This document shows positions 5,551 to 59,308 of a stretch of DNA of 64,000 nucleotides, piece after piece. Source of the DNA: an uncultured delta proteobacterium (GTDB lineage Bacteria; Desulfobacterota; Desulfobacteria; Desulfobacterales; Desulfosalsimonadaceae); assembly GCA_963826785.1 (NCBI GenBank), contig CAWGYD010000005.1, positions 256,001 through 320,000 of the forward strand. The letters are read 5' to 3'. Below the pieces are notes generated by a model. The model was not told the DNA's origin, did no database searches, and was given only the letters and a program-made list of their open reading frames with translations. Every line of letters starts with the position of its first letter. The stretch's first letter is position 1. The position numbers and the translations under genes were made by a program.

Positions 5551-6025
5551 GATAAGCGCTAACTTAACGCATAGTATCCCCCCCGTAATCATCCTTTATG
5601 TCATTCCGGCAGTCTTTTAGCCGGAATCCATTTAAATGATTGCGGGATACAAATCCTCCCAATCGGGATTCGTTCTCTCAATCAAATGCATTTTCCACTT
5701 TCGTTTCCAGTCTTTCAATCGTTTCTCTCGCTGGATAGCAGATTCCATACTTCCATGAAGCTTAGATACCAAACCAAAAAATGGACTCCATACTTTTTGG
5801 TGAACCCTTCCACGAAATTGTTTCTATGTTCCCAAACTCGCTTGATGAGGTCGGAGGTCACACCGATATAAAGGGTGCCGTTTCTTTTATTTGCAAGAAT
5901 GTATACCGCTGGTTGCCTGTTCATTTCGTCTTCCTGGATTCCGGCTTAAAGACTGCCGGAATGACGTTCTTAAGAGGAACGACAAATTAGAAGATATTGC
6001 ATCGGTCATTAAGTTAGCGCCTATG
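5551..6025 (-). mobile_element. GIY-YIG insertion cassette, copy 1 (475 bp, nuclease frameshifted)
   Basis: Ends gATAAGCGCTAACTTAA and TTAAGTTAGCGCCTATG. 11-bp direct repeat CCCCTCAAGGG at 5540-5550 and 6026-6036. Confidence 0.9.
5632..5924 (-). pseudogene. GIY-YIG nuclease with a 2-bp insertion near 5762
   Basis: Same N-terminus as 38186..38476, but reads CTTAGATA where the intact copy reads CTCATA, shifting the frame. Confidence 0.85.
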
Positions 6026-11894: not shown

Positions 11895-12010
11895 AAGTCC
11901 CCCTTAGAAAAAGGGGGATTTAGGGGGATTTTGGTGCGCCGGAATCTTAAATCCCCTTTTGTCTTCGCAGGTCCGACACCCCCCTGAGCCCCCCTCAAGG
12001 GGGGAATTTT
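11895..12010. repeat. Pair of C/G-rich REP-like palindromes between convergent genes
   Basis: TCCCCCTTAGAAAAGGGGGA and ACACCCCCCTGAGCCCCCCTCAAGGGGGGAATT. Confidence 0.75.
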
Positions 12011-22352: not shown

Positions 22353-23642
22353 ATGGCGACAAAGCCCGTCATTGCCGTTATCGGACTGGGATACGTGGGG
22401 TTGCCGGTGGCCGTCGAATTCGGCAAACGCTACCCCACCATCGGGTATGATTTAAAGGCCCATATGATCAAGGCCTATCAGGCGCACACGGACCCCAATG
22501 GCGAATTGTCCGCAGAAGAACTCAAGGCCGCGCTCCACCTTGAATACACCACGGACCCCGCAAGGCTTGCGGAAGCCGACGTGATCATCGTGGCGGTCCC
22601 CACGCCCATCGATGATGCCCGTCAGCCGGATCTCGGCCCGGTCCGGGGCGCTACGGAGACCGCCGGCAGGCACATGAAACCGGGGGCGGTGGTGGTGTAC
22701 GAATCCACGGTGTATCCCGGCACCACGGAAGAGGTCTGCGTTCCGATCCTGGAAAAGATGTCGGGCATGACCTGGAAGACGGATTTTCATGTGGGATATT
22801 CTCCGGAGCGGATCAACCCGGGCGACAAAACACATACCCTGCCCAACATCACCAAGGTCGTGTCCGGTGATACCCCGGAAACCCTGGATTTGCTGGCCGG
22901 TCTCTATGGGGCCATCATCCCGGCGGGGATTTATCGGGCTCCCAACATCCGTACCGCCGAAGCCGCCAAGGTGATCGAAAATACACAGCGGGATTTGAAT
23001 ATCGCCCTGATGAACGAACTCTCGGTGATTTTTGACCGGCTGGGGATCGACACCGTGGAAGTGCTGGAGGCGGCCTCCACCAAGTGGAATTTCCTCCCGT
23101 TCCGCCCCGGGCTGGTGGGCGGTCACTGCATCGGCGTGGACCCGTATTACCTGACCTACCGGGCGGAAAGGGCCGGGTATCATCCCGAAGTCATCCTGGC
23201 CGGGCGCCGGATCAACGACAACATGGGAAAGTTCGTGGTGGAAAAAACCGTCAAGCTCATGGCCCGGTCCTGCGAAAATATCATGAACGCCCGGGTCGGC
23301 ATTTTCGGGCTGACCTTCAAGGAGGACTGCTCCGACCTCAGAAATTCCCGGGTGACCGACATCATCTCCGAACTGAGCGCCTACGGCATCATTCCCCTGG
23401 TCCACGATCCCCTGGCCGATGTGGACGAGGCCCGGCGTATTTTCAACATCCGTTTGACCCCGTTTGAGGAGATGAAGAACCTGGATGCCATCATTATCGC
23501 CGTGTCCCACCGATCTTATAAATCCATGCGGGTCGCTGATTTTGCCGATCGGCTCAATTCAAACGGCTGCCTGATCGATATCAAGGCCATACTGCCCATG
23601 GATGAGGTCAAGGCATCCGGGGTTCATTTCTGGCGACTGTAG
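22353..23642 (+). CDS. Nucleotide-sugar (UDP-GlcNAc/GalNAc type) dehydrogenase
   Basis: Motifs GLGYVGLP, YESTVYPG, SPERINPG and GGHCIGVDP. Confidence 0.93.
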   Translation: MATKPVIAVIGLGYVGLPVAVEFGKRYPTIGYDLKAHMIKAYQAHTDPNGELSAEELKAALHLEYTTDPARLAEADVIIVAVPTPIDDARQPDLGPVRGATETAGRHMKPGAVVVYESTVYPGTTEEVCVPILEKMSGMTWKTDFHVGYSPERINPGDKTHTLPNITKVVSGDTPETLDLLAGLYGAIIPAGIYRAPNIRTAEAAKVIENTQRDLNIALMNELSVIFDRLGIDTVEVLEAASTKWNFLPFRPGLVGGHCIGVDPYYLTYRAERAGYHPEVILAGRRINDNMGKFVVEKTVKLMARSCENIMNARVGIFGLTFKEDCSDLRNSRVTDIISELSAYGIIPLVHDPLADVDEARRIFNIRLTPFEEMKNLDAIIIAVSHRSYKSMRVADFADRLNSNGCLIDIKAILPMDEVKASGVHFWRL

Positions 23643-24319
23643 GTCACTCTGATCCCGCCCCTTATTTTTTCGTAGTAGATGATATCCACGGGAATCGTTT
23701 CGTTTAGAAACGGCTTTGACGCATAGGAGGTCGGCTTGACGGAAACCGGTGTGAGGCCGATAAAGCCGTCGATCCCCTTTGTTTCTTCCTCCGGGGTGGC
23801 CAGCCGGTAAGTGGTGTTTTTCATGGCGGCGATTTTCTTGAGGACGCTTTCCTGAAACCGCAGTCCGGCATAGGTCTTGGTCAGGACCAGCTCACTGATC
23901 CAACGCCGGGTCATGGCCCGGTCGATCCCGGCCATGGCCGTTCTCATCTTTTCAACCATTTCATAGGTCTTTTCAGAAGCCTGATCAATGGCACCGGGAT
24001 GTTTGCCGGTGTACCACTTTACCCATTCTCCATAGCCCCGGCCCGGAAATTCCTGGATCAATTCCGACATCTGTCCCACCTGGTTGGGCCGGGTGGCCTG
24101 TGAGTTCTGGTTGGCCAGATTGAGCAGCTGGGTGGTGTACTTGGGGAAAGGGTCGGCGCTTCCCGCCACATCTTCCATGATGTCGGCCATGGCCAGGGTG
24201 AACCGAAGATCGTGCGTGGCATCCTGCGCCAGAACAGCCACCATGCCGCCGGATGCAGCAGCCGTTATCAGCCAGCAGGCAACCATCAGCATCGACCGGG
24301 TCTTCATGCCCATATTCAT
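23624..24319 (-). CDS. MjaI-family restriction-endonuclease-like protein with N-terminal signal/TM segment
   Basis: FPKYTTQLLNLANQ..TRP..VGQMSELIQEF and GIDGFIG..PVSVKP (PD-xK-like). Hydrophobic leader. Family recognised from memory. Confidence 0.7.
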   Translation of the reverse strand: MNMGMKTRSMLMVACWLITAAASGGMVAVLAQDATHDLRFTLAMADIMEDVAGSADPFPKYTTQLLNLANQNSQATRPNQVGQMSELIQEFPGRGYGEWVKWYTGKHPGAIDQASEKTYEMVEKMRTAMAGIDRAMTRRWISELVLTKTYAGLRFQESVLKKIAAMKNTTYRLATPEEETKGIDGFIGLTPVSVKPTSYASKPFLNETIPVDIIYYEKIRGGIRVTYSRQK

Positions 24320-24504: not shown

Positions 24505-24749
24505 CATAAGCGCTAACTTAACGCATAGTATCCCCCTCGTAATCATCCTTTATGTCATTCCGGCAGTCTTTTAGCCGGAATCCAATGAATAGCAAAGGGT
24601 GCCGTTTCTTTTATTTGCAAGAATGTATACCGCTGGTTGCCTGTTCATTTCGTCTTCCTGGATTCCGGCTTAAAGACTGCCGGAATGACGCTCTTAAGAG
24701 GAACGACAAATTAGAAGATATTGCATCGGTCATTAAGTTAGCGCCTATG
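24505..24749 (-). mobile_element. GIY-YIG insertion cassette, copy 2 (245-bp internally deleted form)
   Basis: Same 17-bp ends. 11-bp TSD CCCCTGCCAGG at 24494-24504 and 24750-24760. Confidence 0.92.
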
Positions 24750-24886
24750 CCCCTGCCAGGGGGGGGACTGAGGGGGGTGAGCCGTCCGGTAGTGAAAAAT
24801 TTTTTGGCGAATCCTTGATAAAATCGTAAAAAGTCTTTATGAGACAACATTGATGAAGCCGTAAAAAGTCGGATTTTACGCTTTCG

Positions 24887-26734
24887 ATAGGGGTCGGGAA
24901 AGGCTCTCGCCCTCCCCGCCCTCCGAACCGTGCGTGCGGTTCTCCCGCACACGGCTCTCCAGTTGGTAGTTTCAACATCGTGACTGGCGCGCCACAGCAT
25001 GGGCTTCGGTTAAGGTGAAAAGCCCGTGCTCAGCGAAAAATGCATTAGGCCAGCGTTTATGATCGGCCAGGCAGCGACCCATACCCGGTCGTCGCTTTTG
25101 TTTGCGCAAGACAGATCGCAGTCGGCGGCGGACAAAACCATCAATCATCTTAAAGGTAAATGGATTCGCATGTTTGAAGTAGCCAAACCAACCTATGAGC
25201 ATCGGATTCAAACTGCCTATTATCTGGTCCAGGCTCTCTCCACGGGATCGGCCGGTTTTGGCCCGTATACGCTCCCGCAGGGACTTGAGGCTTTTCTTTC
25301 GAACCCATCGCTTTCCGGCTTCAAACCGGTAACCCAGGAAGTCAAAGCCTTGTCCTTCTACTGTGCAGTCTCCCACGTGGGTTTTGTCCGGATGCAGGGT
25401 AAGTTCATTTTCTTTTACCCAGGCGCGTATGTCGGCCAGGGCCGACTGCGCTGCCTCTGCACTGGGACACATCACCACAAAGTCATCTGCGTATCGGACC
25501 ATGCGATAACCTTTTGTCCGCATCAGCACATCCAGCGGATGCAGGTACAGGTTCGCCAGCAGGGGACTGATCACCGCACCTTGCGGAGTTCCTCCGGTCG
25601 GCGTCCAGCGCTCCAGCCCACGGACGATATCCTGACCCAGGTATCCCCGAATCAGATCCAGAATACGCCCGTCGCTGATGCGCTCCTGCACTCGGATCAT
25701 CAATCGGTCATGCGGAATGGTGTCAAAGTAGCTCGCAAGGTCGGCGTCCACAACGTGCGTGTAGCCTGCCTTAATCAAACCGTCTACCTCCCGCAGGGCG
25801 TCTTTGCATCCGCGTCCAGGTCGAAAGCCATAGCTCGAATCCAGAAAGTCCCATTCGAAAATCGGCTCTATTACCAGCTTCAGCGCAGTTTGTACGATGC
25901 GGTCTTTTACCGCCGGAATGCCCAGGGGTCGAGTGCGACCCGGCCCTTTGGGTATCTCCACGCGCTTGACCGGCTGCGGCCGGTAAGTGCCGGCCTTCAA
26001 TGCTTCTTCCAGCTCCTTAAGATATTTATCCGCCTTCAACGAAAACCGCTCAACGCTCTGCCCGTCCACTCCGGCCGCCCCCTTGTTTCGCGCGACCTTG
26101 TGCCACGCCAGTTCCAGGGTGCCGGGACGAACCAGCTTGTCGATCAAGCTGAACCACTTGCCTCCTTTGACGCCGTTTTCCAGCGCCGCCAGCATGCGCG
26201 GCGTCCAAATCGAGGCTTCCACCCAGCACCAGTCCCGATGCCCGGTCTCTGCGCCTTGCTTAGCCGTTACCGGCACTGCCGGCGCTTTGCTTATGCTTTG
26301 CCTGTCGTTGGATTTCACGCATCTACCTTCCTGCCTCCCTTCCCTCGGCACGGTTTTGCTTCCCGCGCTTTCCGCAGCATCGGCTGCTTCGGTACTATGA
26401 AGGCTCTGACTCCTGCCTGCGTCACCTCGCAAACAGGTCTCTCCGCTTATCTCGCCACACCTTTCCGGCGTTCCACCTCCAACCACGTGATGCGCCCCGG
26501 CACCGCTTTACGCGCCAATACCCAGCGTACCGGACGATTTTCGGACTTCACCATGAATGAGCAGGCTCGTCGCTGCATCCCGCCGAATCAAGTTCGTCAT
26601 CCTGCGGACCGCCAGTTCGTCTCCGGTTGCTCTCCACCCCACCTCGCGGTGACGCAGTTACCCTCGACTACGGGGCCTTGGCTTACCCCGACACGGACTT
26701 ACACCGTGCTGATATGGCGCCTTTACGGACGCAC
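24887..26734 (-). mobile_element. Group II intron, copy 1 (1848 bp)
   Basis: Starts GTGCG and ends CCGACCCCTAT. Domain V GAGAGCCGTGTGCGGGAGAACCGCACGCACGGTTC. Removing it restores the empty MITE. Confidence 0.96.
24972..26318 (-). CDS. ltrA: Group II intron reverse transcriptase/maturase, no En domain
   Basis: GAAGVDG, RPLGIP..DRIVQ, SYGFRP, GTPQG..ISPLLAN, RYADD and GWFGYF. Start codon uncertain; GTG chosen. Confidence 0.95.
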   Translation of the reverse strand: MKSNDRQSISKAPAVPVTAKQGAETGHRDWCWVEASIWTPRMLAALENGVKGGKWFSLIDKLVRPGTLELAWHKVARNKGAAGVDGQSVERFSLKADKYLKELEEALKAGTYRPQPVKRVEIPKGPGRTRPLGIPAVKDRIVQTALKLVIEPIFEWDFLDSSYGFRPGRGCKDALREVDGLIKAGYTHVVDADLASYFDTIPHDRLMIRVQERISDGRILDLIRGYLGQDIVRGLERWTPTGGTPQGAVISPLLANLYLHPLDVLMRTKGYRMVRYADDFVVMCPSAEAAQSALADIRAWVKENELTLHPDKTHVGDCTVEGQGFDFLGYRFEAGKRWVRKKSLKSLRERIRAKTGRSRGESLDQIIGSLNPMLIGWFGYFKHANPFTFKMIDGFVRRRLRSVLRKQKRRPGMGRCLADHKRWPNAFFAEHGLFTLTEAHAVARQSRC

Positions 26735-26852
26735 TCATTCCGGCGGAGGCCGGAATCTACTACAAACTAAGTTGGTTATAGACTCCGGTTTTCACCGGAG
26801 TGACGAACTTCGGACTTTTTACGGGTTCATCAACATTTGAAATGCATAATTT

Positions 26853-29133: not shown

Positions 29134-29265
29134 GATGAAGCCGTAAAAAGTCGGATTTTACACTTTCGTCATTCCGGCGGAGGCCGGAATCTACTACAAA
29201 CTGAGCTGGTTATAGACTCCGGTTTTCACCGGAGTGACGAACTTCGGACTTTTTACGGGTTCATC
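29134..29265. mobile_element. REP-doublet MITE, copy B (empty, 132 bp)
   Basis: Same TIRs and two internal hairpins; flanked by AAAATTT on both sides. Confidence 0.9.
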
Positions 29266-38025: not shown

Positions 38026-38104
38026 CTTTTCCTTTTTCTGTTATGTTTCGCTTCAGAAAAACCTTTTTACCAATACCGGCTTGCCGGAACACCCCCCTGA
38101 CCCC

Positions 38105-38577
38105 CATAAGCGCTAACTTAACGCATAGTATCCCCCCCGTAATCATCCTTTATGTCATTCCGGCAGTCTTTTAGCCGGAATCCATCTAAATGATTGCGGG
38201 ATACAAATCCTCCCAATCGGGATTCGTTCTCTCAATCAAATGCATTTTCCACTTTCGTTTCCAGTCTTTCAATCGTTTCTCTCGCTGGATAGCAGATTCC
38301 ATACTTCCATGAAGCTCATACCAAACCAAAAAATGGACTCCATACTTTTTGGTGAACCCTTCCACGAAATTGTTTCTATGTTCCCAAACTCGCTTGATGA
38401 GGTCGGAGGTCACACCGATATAAAGGGTGCCGTTTCTTTTATTTGCAAGAATGTATACCGCTGGTTGCCTGTTCATTTCGTCTTCCTGGATTCCGGCTTA
38501 AAGACTGCCGGAATGACGCTCTTAAGAGGAACGACAAATTAGAAGATATTGCATCGGTCATTAAGTTAGCGCTTATG
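38105..38577 (-). mobile_element. GIY-YIG insertion cassette, copy 3 (473 bp, intact)
   Basis: Perfect 17-bp TIR CATAAGCGCTAACTTAA. 11-bp TSD CCCCTGACCCC at 38094-38104 and 38578-38588. Confidence 0.93.
38186..38476 (-). CDS. Small GIY-YIG nuclease (YhbQ/Slx1-like, 96 aa)
   Basis: AVYIL..TLYIGVT..KR, AIQREKRLK and NPDW. Confidence 0.93.
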   Translation of the reverse strand: MNRQPAVYILANKRNGTLYIGVTSDLIKRVWEHRNNFVEGFTKKYGVHFLVWYELHGSMESAIQREKRLKDWKRKWKMHLIERTNPDWEDLYPAII

Positions 38578-38683
38578 CCCCTGACCCCCCTGCCAGGGGG
38601 GAATTAAGGGGTGGCGTGCCTTCACCGTGAATGTCAGTTCCTTTTACAAAAACACCGCACTGCGGGGTGGGGTGCTTTCAAAC

Positions 38684-38762
38684 AAAAAAAAAGACCGTGG
38701 ATGTTTCCACGGTCTTTTATGCACAAAAAAACCGTGGGCTCTGGGGTGCCCACGGTTTTTTT
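38684..38762 (-). terminator. Two tandem intrinsic terminators (trp attenuator)
   Basis: On the minus strand ACCGTGGGC..GCCCACGG followed by a T-run, then AGACCGTGGA..TCCACGGTC followed by a T-run. Confidence 0.85.
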
Positions 38763-38804
38763 AAATCTTTATGTCAGGTAAACGGCGCTTCCGTCGGCAG
38801 GCCC

Positions 38805-38876
38805 CTAAAAATCAGCCCGCCACCACCAGAAGCAGTGGCCCGATGTGCATTTATTTGATCGAATGTTTAATTTCAT
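38805..38876 (-). CDS. trpL: trp operon leader peptide MKLNIRSNKCTSGHCFWWWRADF
   Basis: 23-aa ORF with three consecutive TGG codons, upstream of the terminators and trpE. Too short for the ORF track. Confidence 0.88.
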   Translation of the reverse strand: MKLNIRSNKCTSGHCFWWWRADF

Positions 38877-40622: not shown

Positions 40623-40856
40623 ATGGAAATCAATGTCAAAGAAGCCAGATCAAAGATCAGCGCCCTTTTAGACAGAACCCGCAAGGGGGAGGAAATCATT
40701 ATTGTGCGACGGGGCAGAAGGGTTGCGCGACTCGTCCCTTTTGACGTGAAGGAGAGGCGACTGCCCGATTTAAGCGACTTCAGGTCCTCGATCGCGATAA
40801 AAGGGGATGCCCTCAGTCAGATGGTCATTCGGCAGCGCAATGAGGAACGTTATTGA
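40623..40856 (+). CDS. Phd/YefM antitoxin
   Basis: INVKEARS..GEEIII.RRG..VARLVP. Confidence 0.9.
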   Translation: MEINVKEARSKISALLDRTRKGEEIIIVRRGRRVARLVPFDVKERRLPDLSDFRSSIAIKGDALSQMVIRQRNEERY

Positions 40857-41281
40857 TGTTTTATCTGGATACCAGTGTGCTGGTGGCCTATTACTGCCCC
40901 GAAAGTCTGAGCGAATCGGTTCAAAAATTTCTAAGCGAACAAGTTAAGCCGGGTATCAGTTCTTTGACGGAAGTAGAGCTATTTTCCGCAGTGGCCAAAA
41001 AAGTGCGCACAAAGGAAGTCGATCAGGCGGACGGGAATCGTATTTTAGCCAAATTTTCTTCCCATGTGGACGGCGAATTATTTACGATGATTTCCGTGGA
41101 AAATCATCACTGGCGGATGGCCCGGGGGTGGCTCGGTCTTTTCACTACACCGCTTAGAGCACTTGATGCCATTCATCTTGCAATCGCTTCTGCCGAAGGG
41201 TTGGAATTGATCACGTGTGACAGGTTTCTTCATCAGGCTGCCGGTGCTCTGAATGTCAAGAGCCATTTCATGGATGGATGA
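40856..41281 (+). CDS. VapC/PIN toxin
   Basis: YLDTS, LRALDAIHLA and TCD. Confidence 0.9.
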   Translation: MFYLDTSVLVAYYCPESLSESVQKFLSEQVKPGISSLTEVELFSAVAKKVRTKEVDQADGNRILAKFSSHVDGELFTMISVENHHWRMARGWLGLFTTPLRALDAIHLAIASAEGLELITCDRFLHQAAGALNVKSHFMDG

Positions 41282-41299: not shown

Positions 41300-41431
41300 G
41301 ATGAAGCCGTAAAAAGTCGGATTTTACGCTTTCGTCATTCCGGCGGAGGCCGGAATCTACTACAAACTTAGTTGGTTATAGACTCCGGCTTTCACCGGAG
41401 TGACGAACTTCGGACTTTTTACGGGTTCATC
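41300..41431. mobile_element. REP-doublet MITE, copy C (empty, 132 bp)
   Basis: Same TIRs; TSD AAATTT. Confidence 0.92.
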
Positions 41432-48584: not shown

Positions 48585-48723
48585 TCTATGATGAAATTGA
48601 AAGAAATCGGTTCAATATTGATGAAGCCGTAAAAAGTCGGATTTTACGCTTTCGTCATTCCGGCGGAGGCCGGAATCTACAACAAACTAAGTTGGTTATA
48701 GACTCCGGTTTTCACCGGAATGA

Positions 48724-50571
48724 GTGCGTCCGTAAAGGCGCCATATCAGCACGGTGTAAGTCCGTGTCGGGGTAAGCCAAGGCCCCGTAGTCGAGGGTAA
48801 CTGCGTCACCGCGAGGTGGGGTGGAGAGCAACCGGAGACGAACTGGCGGTCCGCAGGATGACGAACTTGATTCGGCGGGATGCAGCGACGAGCCTGCTCA
48901 TTCATGGTGAAGTCCGAAAATCGTCCGGTACGCTGGGTATTGGCGCGTAAAGCGGTGCCGGGGCGCATCACGTGGTTGGAGGTGGAACGCCGGAAAGGTG
49001 TGGCGAGATAAGCGGAGAGACCTGTTTGCGAGGTGACGCAGGCAGGAGTCAGAGCCTTCATAGTACCGAAGCAGCCGATGCTGCGGAAAGCGCGGGAAGC
49101 AAAACCGTGCCGAGGGAAGGGAGGCAGGAAGGTAGATGCGTGAAATCCAACGACAGGCAAAGCATAAGCAAAGCGCCGGCAGTGCCGGTAACGGCTAAGC
49201 AAGGCGCAGAGACCGGGCATCGGGACTGGTGCTGGGTGGAAGCCTCGATTTGGACGCCGCGCATGCTGGCGGCGCTGGAAAACGGCGTCAAAGGAGGCAA
49301 GTGGTTCAGCTTGATCGACAAGCTGGTTCGTCCCGGCACCCTGGAACTGGCGTGGCACAAGGTCGCGCGAAACAAGGGGGCGGCCGGAGTGGACGGGCAG
49401 AGCGTTGAGCGGTTTTCGTTGAAGGCGGATAAATATCTTAAGGAGCTGGAAGAAGCATTGAAGGCCGGCACTTACCGGCCGCAGCCGGTCAAGCGCGTGG
49501 AGATACCCAAAGGGCCGGGTCGCACTCGACCCCTGGGCATTCCGGCGGTAAAAGACCGCATCGTACAAACTGCGCTGAAGCTGGTAATAGAGCCGATTTT
49601 CGAATGGGACTTTCTGGATTCGAGCTATGGCTTTCGACCTGGACGCGGATGCAAAGACGCCCTGCGGGAGGTAGACGGTTTGATTAAGGCAGGCTACACG
49701 CACGTTGTGGACGCCGACCTTGCGAGCTACTTTGACACCATTCCGCATGACCGATTGATGATCCGAGTGCAGGAGCGCATCAGCGACGGGCGTATTCTGG
49801 ATCTGATTCGGGGATACCTGGGTCAGGATATCGTCCGTGGGCTGGAGCGCTGGACGCCGACCGGAGGAACTCCGCAAGGTGCGGTGATCAGTCCCCTGCT
49901 GGCGAACCTGTACCTGCATCCGCTGGATGTGCTGATGCGGACAAAAGGTTATCGCATGGTCCGATACGCAGATGACTTTGTGGTGATGTGTCCCAGTGCA
50001 GAGGCAGCGCAGTCGGCCCTGGCCGACATACGCGCCTGGGTAAAAGAAAATGAACTTACCCTGCATCCGGACAAAACCCACGTGGGAGACTGCACAGTAG
50101 AAGGACAAGGCTTTGACTTCCTGGGTTACCGGTTTGAAGCCGGAAAGCGATGGGTTCGAAAGAAAAGCCTCAAGTCCCTGCGGGAGCGTATACGGGCCAA
50201 AACCGGCCGATCCCGTGGAGAGAGCCTGGACCAGATAATAGGCAGTTTGAATCCGATGCTCATAGGTTGGTTTGGCTACTTCAAACATGCGAATCCATTT
50301 ACCTTTAAGATGATTGATGGTTTTGTCCGCCGCCGACTGCGATCTGTCTTGCGCAAACAAAAGCGACGACCGGGTATGGGTCGCTGCCTGGCCGATCATA
50401 AACGCTGGCCTAATGCATTTTTCGCTGAGCACGGGCTTTTCACCTTAACCGAAGCCCATGCTGTGGCGCGCCAGTCACGATGTTGAAACTACCAACTGGA
50501 GAGCCGTGTGCGGGAGAACCGCACGCACGGTTCGGAGGGCGGGGAGGGCGAGAGCCTTTCCCGACCCCTAT
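48724..50571 (+). mobile_element. Group II intron, copy 2 (1848 bp)
   Basis: GTGCG...CCCCTAT. Same length and identical translated IEP as copy 1, in inverted orientation. Confidence 0.96.
49140..50486 (+). CDS. ltrA: Group II intron reverse transcriptase/maturase
   Basis: RYADD; protein identical to copy 1. Confidence 0.95.
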   Translation: MKSNDRQSISKAPAVPVTAKQGAETGHRDWCWVEASIWTPRMLAALENGVKGGKWFSLIDKLVRPGTLELAWHKVARNKGAAGVDGQSVERFSLKADKYLKELEEALKAGTYRPQPVKRVEIPKGPGRTRPLGIPAVKDRIVQTALKLVIEPIFEWDFLDSSYGFRPGRGCKDALREVDGLIKAGYTHVVDADLASYFDTIPHDRLMIRVQERISDGRILDLIRGYLGQDIVRGLERWTPTGGTPQGAVISPLLANLYLHPLDVLMRTKGYRMVRYADDFVVMCPSAEAAQSALADIRAWVKENELTLHPDKTHVGDCTVEGQGFDFLGYRFEAGKRWVRKKSLKSLRERIRAKTGRSRGESLDQIIGSLNPMLIGWFGYFKHANPFTFKMIDGFVRRRLRSVLRKQKRRPGMGRCLADHKRWPNAFFAEHGLFTLTEAHAVARQSRC

Positions 50572-50683
50572 CGAAAGCGTAAATTCGGACTTTTTACGGG
50601 TTCATCAATATTGATTCTCTATATAATCGATATGTTTGCTTAGCCGGACGGTCCGACACCCCCCTTTATCCCCCCTGGAGGGG

Positions 50684-50928
50684 CATAAGCGCTGACTTAA
50701 CGCATAGTATCCCCCCCGTAATCATCCTTTATGTCATTCCGGCAGTCTTTTAGCCGGAATCCAATGAATAGCAAAGGGTGCCGTTTCTTTTATTTGCAAG
50801 AATGTATACCGCTGGTTGCCTGTTCATTTCGTCTTCCTGGATTCCGGCTTAAAGACTGCCGGAATGACGCTCTTAAGAGGAACGACAAATTAGAAGATAT
50901 TGCATCGGTCATTAAGTTAGCGCCTATG
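50684..50928 (-). mobile_element. GIY-YIG insertion cassette, copy 4 (245-bp deleted form)
   Basis: Same deletion junction as copy 2. TSD CCCTGGAGGGG at 50673-50683 and 50929-50939. Confidence 0.92.
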
Positions 50929-51357: not shown

Positions 51358-51488
51358 GATGAAGCCGTAAAAAGTCGGTTTTACGCTTTCGTCATTCCGG
51401 CGGAGGCCGGAATCTACTACAAACTAAGCTGGTTATAGACTCCGGTTTTCACCGGAGTGACGAACTTCGGACTTTTTGCGGGTTCATC
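51358..51488. mobile_element. REP-doublet MITE, copy E (empty, 131 bp)
   Basis: Same TIRs; TSD AATGTT. Confidence 0.92.
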
Positions 51489-57072: not shown

Positions 57073-57309
57073 ATGAAGATAGTCAATATTTCTGAGGCAA
57101 AAACCAATCTTTCCAAGCTGGTGGCGCTTGTTTACCGTGGAGAGAAGGTTGTTATTGCAAAAAACAACCTGCCGCTTGTGGATCTGGTTATTCATAAACC
57201 GGAAGGAAAAAGAAAACTCGGATTGCTGGCAGGCAAATTCACTGTTCCGGACAATATAATGGATGAGGATGCTGAAATAAACTCAATGTTCTATGGCAGT
57301 GATTCATGA
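57073..57309 (+). CDS. Phd/YefM antitoxin
   Basis: VNISEAKTNLSKL..GEKVVI and RKLG. Confidence 0.9.
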   Translation: MKIVNISEAKTNLSKLVALVYRGEKVVIAKNNLPLVDLVIHKPEGKRKLGLLAGKFTVPDNIMDEDAEINSMFYGSDS

Positions 57310-57677
57310 ATATCATCATTGATACCCATATTTTTCTCTGGGCATTGTCTGATCCGGAGAGGATAAGTGCTTCGAAACGTACGGCATTGGAAGATTTGTC
57401 CAATACGATCTATGTCAGTGCTGTCAGTATCGCTGAAATTATGATTAAGGCATCTGTCGGGAAGCTTGCGATAGACTTTAATCCGGCAGATATGGCTACC
57501 GAAAGCGGCTTCGCGCTTCTTGATTTCAGCGCGGAAGCAGCGTTGTTGCTCAAGGATATGCCATTTCACCATAAAGATCTTTTCGATCGCATGCTGATAG
57601 CGCAAAGCATTACAGACAACTTTCCGATAATGACGGAAAATCCGAAAATAGCGCTGTATGATTGCCGGGTAATGTGA
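57306..57677 (+). CDS. VapC/PIN toxin
   Basis: IDTHIFLW and HHKDLFDRMLIAQ. Confidence 0.9.
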   Translation: MNIIIDTHIFLWALSDPERISASKRTALEDLSNTIYVSAVSIAEIMIKASVGKLAIDFNPADMATESGFALLDFSAEAALLLKDMPFHHKDLFDRMLIAQSITDNFPIMTENPKIALYDCRVM

Positions 57678-58835: not shown

Positions 58836-59308
58836 CATAGGCGCTAACTTAATGACCGATGCAATATCTTCTAATTTGTCGTTCCTCTTAAGAGCGTCAT
58901 TCCGGCAGTCTTTAAGCCGGAATCCAGGAAGACGAAATGAACAGGCAACCAGCGGTATACATTCTTGCAAATAAAAGAAACGGCACCCTTTATATCGGTG
59001 TGACCTCCGACCTCATCAAGCGAGTTTGGGAACATAGAAACAATTTCGTGGAAGGGTTCACCAAAAAGTATGGAGTCCATTTTTTGGTTTGGTATGAGCT
59101 TCATGGAAGTATGGAATCTGCTATCCAGCCAGAGAAACGATTGAAAGACTGGAAACGAAAGTGGAAAATGCATTTGATTGAGAGAACGAATCCCGATTGG
59201 GAGGATTTGTATCCCGCAATCATTTAAATGGATTCCGGCTAAAAGCCTGCCGGAATGACATAAAGGATGATTACGGGGGGGATATTATGCGTTAAGTTAG
59301 CGCTTATG
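58836..59308 (+). mobile_element. GIY-YIG insertion cassette, copy 5 (473 bp, opposite orientation)
   Basis: CATAGGCGCTAACTTAA ... TTAAGTTAGCGCTTATG. Flanks CCCTCGAGGGG and CCCCTTGAGGG form an imperfect TSD. Confidence 0.9.
58937..59227 (+). CDS. Small GIY-YIG nuclease (96 aa, R-to-P change in AIQPEK)
   Basis: One residue differs from 38186..38476. Flanked by inverted REP hairpins at 58895-58926 and 59229-59259. Confidence 0.9.
   Translation: MNRQPAVYILANKRNGTLYIGVTSDLIKRVWEHRNNFVEGFTKKYGVHFLVWYELHGSMESAIQPEKRLKDWKRKWKMHLIERTNPDWEDLYPAII

Follow-up and report, generated by a model that had tools for sequence, protein, structure and literature searches.

A GIY-YIG nuclease gene and its hairpins between IS186/IS421-type ends: a multi-copy IS4-type cassette in an uncultured deltaproteobacterium

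In MIC231 of Bacillus cereus a passenger gene is enclosed between IS ends, and MITEs usually outlast the transient autonomous partner that mobilises them. The unit described here combines such an arrangement with a second known system, the Ssn nucleases and their SRM hairpins. According to the text of Chenal et al. (2025, PMC11893778), Ssn binds these hairpins and requires the residues Y6, Y17 and E64; its cut in single-stranded DNA falls a few bases upstream of the hairpin. Hairpins are reported there on both sides of the gene in 42% of the homologues, and homology is defined by an E value below 1e-10 over 75% of the length or, more strictly, by 60% identity. The same paper proposes that the module is mobile, and the words "IS4" and "duplication" do not occur in its main text. 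One survey found no transposase dedicated to CGTC/SRM hairpins and ssn. Among the insertion sequences, the IS231 subgroup of IS4 is characterised by ends of the form CAT-------AA--TAA and by direct repeats of 10–12 bp (De Palmenaer et al. 2008, PMC2266710, table 1); IS186 is not named in the main text of that paper. IS186 is described as needing G/C runs around its target, which in Escherichia coli has the form GGGG(N6/7)CCCC (PMC5009759).

Anatomy of the Unit and Its Copies in the Source Genome

The window, that is, the whole stretch of 64,000 nucleotides that was analyzed, contains the five units that a first-pass annotation had placed in it (table 1). The 17-bp terminal inverted repeats described for them are present on all five, with small deviations in two: the first base of the 5551 copy is G and not C, and a single base, at position 11, is altered in the 50684 copy. 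The 96-aa gene, which had been taken as the cargo of every copy, is found in only two of the five, intact in the 38105 copy and with the substitution R65P, adjoining the catalytic Glu66, in the 58836 copy. The inverted hairpins said to bracket the gene are present and both fold better than shuffled sequences (z = -5.8 and -2.9).

Table 1. Features of the 38105 unit, the other copies in the window and older remains elsewhere in the source assembly.
Feature	Position	Strand
Left copy of the 11-bp target-site duplication (CCCCTGACCCC)	38094..38104	+
Terminal inverted repeat, 17 bp, equal to the IS421/IS186 end	38105..38121	+
SRM/NTS-type hairpin downstream of ssn; one mismatch to the published SRM motif	38153..38185	+
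ssn gene, 96-aa single-domain GIY-YIG nuclease	38186..38476	-
SRM/NTS-type hairpin upstream of ssn, inverted to the first hairpin; one mismatch to the published motif	38486..38518	-
Second terminal inverted repeat, 17 bp	38561..38577	-
Right copy of the 11-bp duplication, then the remainder of the C-rich/G-rich target repeat	38578..38588	+
475-bp copy; 2-bp insertion frameshifts the gene (69 aa); exact 11-bp duplication	5551..6025	+
245-bp deletion derivative that retains both ends, both hairpins and 25 codons of the gene; exact 11-bp duplication	24505..24749	+
245-bp deletion derivative, same breakpoints as the 24505 copy; both hairpins; exact 11-bp duplication	50684..50928	+
473-bp copy in opposite orientation, located within tandemly arrayed target repeats; R65P in its 96-aa ORF; duplication imperfect	58836..59308	-
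Older cassette remains	C8:22694, C6:201848, C11:4614, C10:21090	

The source assembly (4.43 Mb in 11 contigs, 87.8% complete) was searched as a whole. Allowing at most two mismatches, it contains 27 end-like sites, which resolve into 12 two-ended copies and four older remains. Six of the 12 copies lie on the contig of the window, five of them inside it. Five of the 12 are 473 bp long and hold the 96-aa ORF (one with M59I and one with R65P), one is the frameshifted 475-bp copy, five are 245 or 246 bp long and one is a 333-bp deletion form with a duplicated left end. The five gene-less 245/246-bp copies have common internal breakpoints and occupy five distinct sites. Since only 0–5 positions distinguish the 473-bp copies from the one at 38105, the spread of the cassette was recent, as had been proposed.

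The GIY-YIG frame is the only ORF recognised between the ends and no DDE/YREK transposase is encoded there; the unit is therefore an IS derivative and not an IS. A RAYT/REPtron would carry a Y1 HUH transposase between its REPs; here the cargo is GIY-YIG, and the five PF01797 matches of the assembly are located elsewhere. A promoter scan returned one site, which equals the chance expectation.

The 38105 copy lies between a trp attenuator-like terminator (38689-38718) and trpE. The leader to which the terminator belongs (38689-38830, with three Trp codons) is upstream of the copy, and ssn, co-oriented with trpE, may therefore be read with the trp operon. Other genes noted in the window are a MjaI-type restriction endonuclease adjoining the 24505 copy and two PIN-domain genes (window 23624-24319, 40853-41281 and 57306-57677).

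Ends, Target Sites, and Autonomous Relatives

An annotated IS421 from an E. coli plasmid (1339 bp, 10-bp duplication) shares its 17 terminal bases with the cassette at both ends (17/17), in agreement with the first-pass annotation, which had named the IS186/IS421 terminus and proposed a non-autonomous IS4-type cassette. The ends also fit the consensus of the IS231 subgroup, and the 11-bp duplications fall within its published range of 10–12 bp, so that the likeness to this group, also stated in that annotation, holds. IS186 and IS421 are here assumed to belong to the IS231 subgroup of IS4.

Among 301 genomes of the order, 19 contain the end pattern and none contains the reversed control. One genome of the order carries a complete 1377-bp element (L083) with two perfect ends, inserted in a G/C hairpin and flanked by an 11-bp duplication that is exact. 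Its transposase is a 385-aa IS4 protein (NF033592, 154.6 bits against a cut-off of 115) with a YREK motif and is 33% identical to the transposase of IS421; the right end of this IS matches the end at 38105..38121 together with the next eight bases in 23 out of 25 positions. Close relatives of the transposase (at least 36% identity) occur in 6 of the 301 genomes, one of them in the same family as the source genome. Furthermore, both halves of such an IS are found at contig ends in a genome of the same family (G013), and another genome (G346) holds five full IS copies together with hairpin-bearing MITEs in the same target repeat. An IS4 transposase with the same ends, for which a search had been suggested, thus exists in the same order and in the same family but was not found in the source assembly. 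In viral contigs the end alone matched 118 stretches, mostly IS421/IS186 itself or chance matches, and the end combined with the hairpin gave no match.

The first-pass annotation had also proposed that the unit moves in trans, and indeed no cognate transposase was found inside the element or in the assembly (87.8% complete): tblastn returned a best E value of 1.5, a profile search of all six frames (seven full or partial transposase ORFs) a best E value of 3.9, and nothing exceeded the cut-off of NF033592. The DDE genes of the assembly were considered as partners and rejected, as none of the four PF01609 matches, two of which were classified as IS1634 and IS701, has these ends within four mismatches. 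A 6.5-kb stretch (C3:327001-333542) was likewise rejected as an autonomous parent or composite transposon, as it resolves into two distinct 245-bp copies, both flanked by duplications of their own, and ordinary genes between them. As a separate observation, the assembly contains a PilT-like ATPase ORF with an apparent in-frame transposase fragment (C1:852946-856557, L011; PF01609 match in a 634-aa frame).

Transposases are also scarce in other carriers. Of 42 genomes that were selected because they contain these ends or remains of them, only 6 have a transposase match; five of the six are fragments or distant relatives, and a single genome has full-length close copies. Three of five well-assembled cassette-bearing genomes have IS4 transposases over the cut-off, and no IS186-type ends were found at the five top IS4 loci out of 30 in these five genomes. 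That no cognate transposase was found in the source assembly, and few elsewhere, is the main weakness of the reading that the cassette is mobilised in trans; the scarcity fits cassettes that outlast a transient partner.

The target-site duplications were tabulated across the genome, as the first-pass annotation had recommended. Exact 11-bp duplications flank 7 of the 12 two-ended copies, four further copies have one mismatch and one has two. Two of the single mismatches are TCGA versus TTGA, the commonest variation of the target repeat itself, and the duplication of the 58836 copy has two mismatches over 12 bp. Four exact, locus-specific duplications had been claimed for the window: the four at 5551, 24505, 38105 and 50684 are exact, and the last three have locus-specific sequences. 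Flanks swapped between copies gave exact matches in 12 out of 132 pairs and at most one mismatch in 58 out of 132, a high background because all targets come from one repeat family.

A core resembling CCCCCT-NN-AGGGG (at most two mismatches) is present in 12 out of 12 reconstructed sites. Eleven insertions cut across the core and the 38105 copy lies just beside it. The exact core CCCCCT-NN-AGGGGG occurs 292 times in the assembly, compared with 0.6 expected from base composition. An assay of the nuclease on the C-rich target palindrome, which had been suggested, has little basis, since the choice of target matches that of IS186-type transposases. In the window the core is found at 11990, 29025, 33896, 34076, 39077, 43819 and other positions. 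Its central pair is CA in 117, TG in 110 and CG in 53 cases, a pattern that fits C-to-T change on either strand of CG, perhaps methylated.

On empty sites, a further point raised by the first-pass annotation, the picture is mixed. For the copy at C5:1909, which lies in a tandem repeat, the adjoining unit carries no insertion: the 11-mer occurs in it only once, and 71 bases spanning the junction are identical. In five genomes of the same family the region of the 38105 copy contains no ssn. Three of these regions are short and unremarkable, a fourth carries another insertion and the fifth a decayed piece with an end and a hairpin. The family genomes without the cassette at the orthologous regions also lack the same target repeat, in a comparison made above genus level. 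The decayed piece upstream of trpE in another genus (L581, genome G019) lies in a different target repeat, which suggests an independent insertion at a hot spot. In genome G330 the flanks of one copy are joined without the cassette in eight relatives, in which the small target repeat differs too, and for three further copies of G330 no junction-spanning match was found in five relatives each. No RNA run is among the sequencing runs listed as containing the cassette. Two DNA sequencing runs from one study contain it at 99–100% identity, with no flanks of the 38105 copy and no joint; they are evidence neither of transfer nor of an empty site, since a multi-copy element assembles at a lower depth of its host.

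The Ssn Cargo and the Breadth of the Cassette

The 96-aa ORF is a lone GIY-YIG domain (PF01541, E = 7.8e-15, over the cut-off; no other Pfam domain), so the nuclease had been identified correctly. Its identity with an ORF of Neisseria gonorrhoeae, which is unannotated, lies between NTS repeats and was used as a stand-in for SsnA, is 63.4% over 93 aa (E = 5e-43). Tyr8, Tyr19 and Glu66 of the window protein align with Y6, Y17 and E64 of SsnA. Neither of the two window hairpins matches the published SRM motif exactly; each matches it with one substitution. A search of PDB sequences gave only a weak GIY-YIG match (1zg2, E = 0.0036). The gene-plus-hairpin module, which had been put forward as a new system, is by its sequence the Ssn/SRM system already described in the text of PMC11893778. 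By analogy with SsnA, the window protein would cut single-stranded DNA beside its own hairpins. The source assembly has a second ssn paralogue (C4:167247-167525, L013) that is single-copy, 63% identical, associated with a different hairpin variant and free of IS ends.

A GTDB scan for an end followed by a hairpin start returned at least 116 loci. Among the matches listed, 61 two-ended relatives have scorable flanks, and their duplications are exact in 25 cases, with one mismatch in 12, two in 5, three in 7 and four or more in 12. Among 2000 swapped pairs that served as a control, 0.3% were exact and 0.4% had one mismatch. The exact duplications of the listed relatives measure 11 bp (19 cases) or 10 bp (6 cases), and in 32 of their 37 well-preserved duplications the first and last bases are G or C. 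The repeats that serve as targets in other genomes are different ones, and the relatives there are flanked by exact duplications of their own. At least 17 ssn-bearing two-ended cassettes (416–586 bp) from at least 12 other genomes are among the matches listed, under the labels Thermodesulfobacteriota, Myxococcota, Pseudomonadota, Chloroflexota, Bipolaricaulota and unclassified deltaproteobacteria; these genomes are MAGs, and single labels may reflect misbinning. Most of the remaining listed matches are gene-less hairpin MITEs of 100–200 bp. Genome G330 shows a second multi-copy burst (21 end matches). Two short derivatives of 87 and 110 bp (L504:1501-1587 and L502) have a single fused or partial hairpin, the shape expected from gene loss by recombination between hairpin arms.

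Overall, the cassette pattern is uncommon (7 out of 301 genomes of the phylum) and most ssn genes lie outside such cassettes. Of the best 80 metagenome loci by similarity to the window protein, a set that includes some near-duplicate loci, 69 have enough flank to be scored: both ends are present at 16, one end at 9 and none at 44. In the sample of the order, 23 out of 27 ssn loci have no ends.

The ssn genes within cassettes are under purifying selection. Pairwise dN/dS has a median of 0.112 among 27 two-ended genes free of stops (101 pairs with dS 0.05–1.5) and of 0.156 among 54 end-less genes (38 pairs); the pairs are non-independent and broken genes were left out. At the level of loci, ssn is broken or partial in 3 out of 36 two-ended cases and conserved in 33. 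The residues Tyr8, Tyr19 and Glu66 are retained in 27, 26 and 26 of the 27 two-ended genes. Passive carriage fails to explain selection of this strength (dN/dS about 0.11). The nuclease may be kept for the restriction of incoming hairpin-bearing single-stranded DNA, as in Neisseria, or for a separate mobility of the inner module; both are candidates.

Other palindromic repeats are also enclosed by IS186-type ends. At L063:1501-2099 such ends surround the gene of a DUF559 nuclease together with the G/C hairpins that belong to it, and MITEs with these ends and no SRM hairpins occur at L061, L075 and L076. AT-rich heptamer-like repeats lie between IS186-type ends at L075, L076, L078, L082, L085 and L086. 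At L078 the ends precede the start of a short ORF, of which 33 aa gave no Pfam match and which presumably resembles four-helix-bundle proteins.

An unrelated MITE of 132 bp was observed in the window (29134-29265, 41300-41431 and 51358-51488), with about 27 copies in the source assembly. It has 19-bp ends starting with GATG, AT-rich duplications of about 6 bp and two diverged SRM hairpins. Of the 82 matches to its end in the assembly, 54 pair at 132 bp; its ends are present in 36 of the 37 family genomes, where they mostly enclose something else, and no autonomous partner was identified. The entry of hairpin modules into MITE shells thus looks general and not specific to Ssn. A group II intron (RVT_1 and GIIM) is inserted in this MITE at the SRM hairpin (window 24852-26831 and 48620-50606, and C10:16661 of the assembly), forming a third layer of nesting at no fewer than three sites.

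Movement of the Cassette and Comparison with Known Systems

With a probability of roughly 0.8, the unit is a passenger cassette on which a DDE transposase of the IS186 type acts in trans, inserting it with an 11-bp stagger into G/C-rich repeats. Within the IS4 family it would count as a non-autonomous mobile insertion cassette. The DDE transposase of an autonomous IS186-like element, present only at times, would bind both 17-bp ends, excise the unit and insert it at G/C-rich sites, here the CCCCCT-NN-AGGGGG repeat. That an IS186-type transposase in particular is responsible is suggested by the identity of the ends. Ssn would be a passenger in the transposition step, copies that lose the gene would shrink to 245-bp MITEs and keep spreading, and the cassette would be one vehicle that spreads ssn and the CGTC/SRM hairpins within and between genomes.

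A different reading is that mobility has two tiers: the hairpin-ssn-hairpin module would itself be mobile through nicks made by Ssn outside the hairpins and would repeatedly insert into, or be swapped between, MITE shells that are then moved by DDE transposition. We consider this doubtful as an account of the present unit, although several observations point toward it. In a DNA tree of 92 rows, based on 288 alignment columns, end-bearing genes are intermixed with end-less ones (11 changes), and an AU test rejected a single clade of end-bearing genes (p-AU = 0.0165). This test was run after 12 long-branch or outgroup rows (one of them end-bearing) had been dropped and with three apparently decayed rows counted as end-bearing, and the tested grouping was adjusted after the tree had been viewed. 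The spacers between end and hairpin range from 4 to about 55 bp in several classes, and the cut reported in the text of PMC11893778, a few bases upstream of the hairpin, would fall inside this spacer. The unrelated 132-bp shell also holds an SRM pair, and its ends enclose other contents among the first loci from 29 other family genomes. The 44 end-less loci among the 69 scored from the best 80 metagenome loci have hairpins or no frame.

However, the 38 end-bearing genes are all confined to a single subtree, which has 62 rows and weak support (SH-aLRT 80), and none of the 30 rows outside it has IS186-type ends, several end-less rows are decayed cassettes (L267 and L360), the alignment is short and no hairpin-free shell with matching spacers was identified. 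To our knowledge, GIY-YIG enzymes have no strand-joining activity. Given the adjustment of the tested grouping, the AU test is only suggestive that the end-bearing ssn genes are not one clade, and several captures, unrecognised losses and gene swaps are all possible histories.

It is improbable that transposition depends on Ssn as a helper, which might, for instance, nick extruded hairpins so that the ends are freed or the donor site is repaired, and which would act in trans on the short copies. Every derivative in the source assembly keeps both hairpins, with intact ssn copies available in trans, the gene is conserved at most two-ended loci, and the transposase is seldom found beside the cassette. 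Against these points, the same duplications accompany ssn-free elements with these ends, both autonomous ones and MITEs that lack hairpins, and deletion products with fused or partial hairpins exist. Ssn is unneeded in cis, since gene-less copies spread equally well, and in other genomes IS186-type ends function on units that lack hairpins.

Gene conversion or recombination among the target repeats, with the duplications as an artefact of repeat flanks, draws on the repetitive targets and on the frequent matches between swapped flanks; it is very hard to credit and is largely refuted by the duplications of relatives in different repeats of other genomes, with the three locus-specific duplications and the empty tandem neighbor also speaking against it.

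The preferred reading, transposition in trans of a passenger cassette, reveals no new enzyme class and no new transposition chemistry. What is undescribed in the literature searched is only the packaging of the Ssn module between IS186-type ends; no description of ssn or of CGTC hairpins inside IS4-type ends was found in open-access papers and preprints. The cassette provides one concrete route of spread for the subset of ssn loci that have both ends (16 of the 69). It can be tested in E. coli because the 17-bp ends are those of the resident IS186, and the copies constitute a natural set of Ssn/hairpin pairs from anaerobes that is useful for the development of single-strand DNA tools. More tentatively, IS186-type ends could be a general shuttle for modules of hairpin repeats and cognate genes (Ssn/SRM, DUF559 and others), with the Ssn module itself mobile through nicks and repeatedly loading MITE shells. 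If so, the system would have two tiers, in which a GIY-YIG nuclease makes or moves CGTC repeats and DDE transposases carry them across phyla.

In comparison with known systems, the nuclease resembles Ssn of Neisseria meningitidis (SsnA, CDD cd10448) as a single GIY-YIG domain of about 95 aa with the Tyr/Tyr/Glu residues, and the unit resembles the Ssn/SRM module in that the gene is framed by inverted CGTC-type hairpins. It differs from the published module by its IS4-type ends, 11-bp duplications and multi-copy state and by hairpins that deviate from the motif at one position; the Neisseria ssn locus has no IS186-type ends. With the CGTC-tagged REPs (Di Nocera et al. 2013, PMC3733652) it shares CGTC-type hairpins and head-to-head dimers, and insertion into palindromic repeats is known for other, REP-targeting IS elements. 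The terminal 17 bases, 10- to 11-bp duplications and G/C-rich targets are those of IS186/IS421, whereas the transposase gene is missing, the length is 473 bp compared with 1339 bp, and the polarity of the target in the source genome, C-rich and then G-rich, is the reverse of that of E. coli IS186. The short gene-less derivatives are like IS4-derived MITEs. Finally, as in the mobile insertion cassettes, a class that is named in the text of PMC6542083 and includes MIC231, a passenger lies between IS ends and movement would depend on a transposase in trans; unlike in MIC231, the passenger is a nuclease accompanied by the hairpins that it targets, and the hosts are mainly deltaproteobacteria and not Bacillus.
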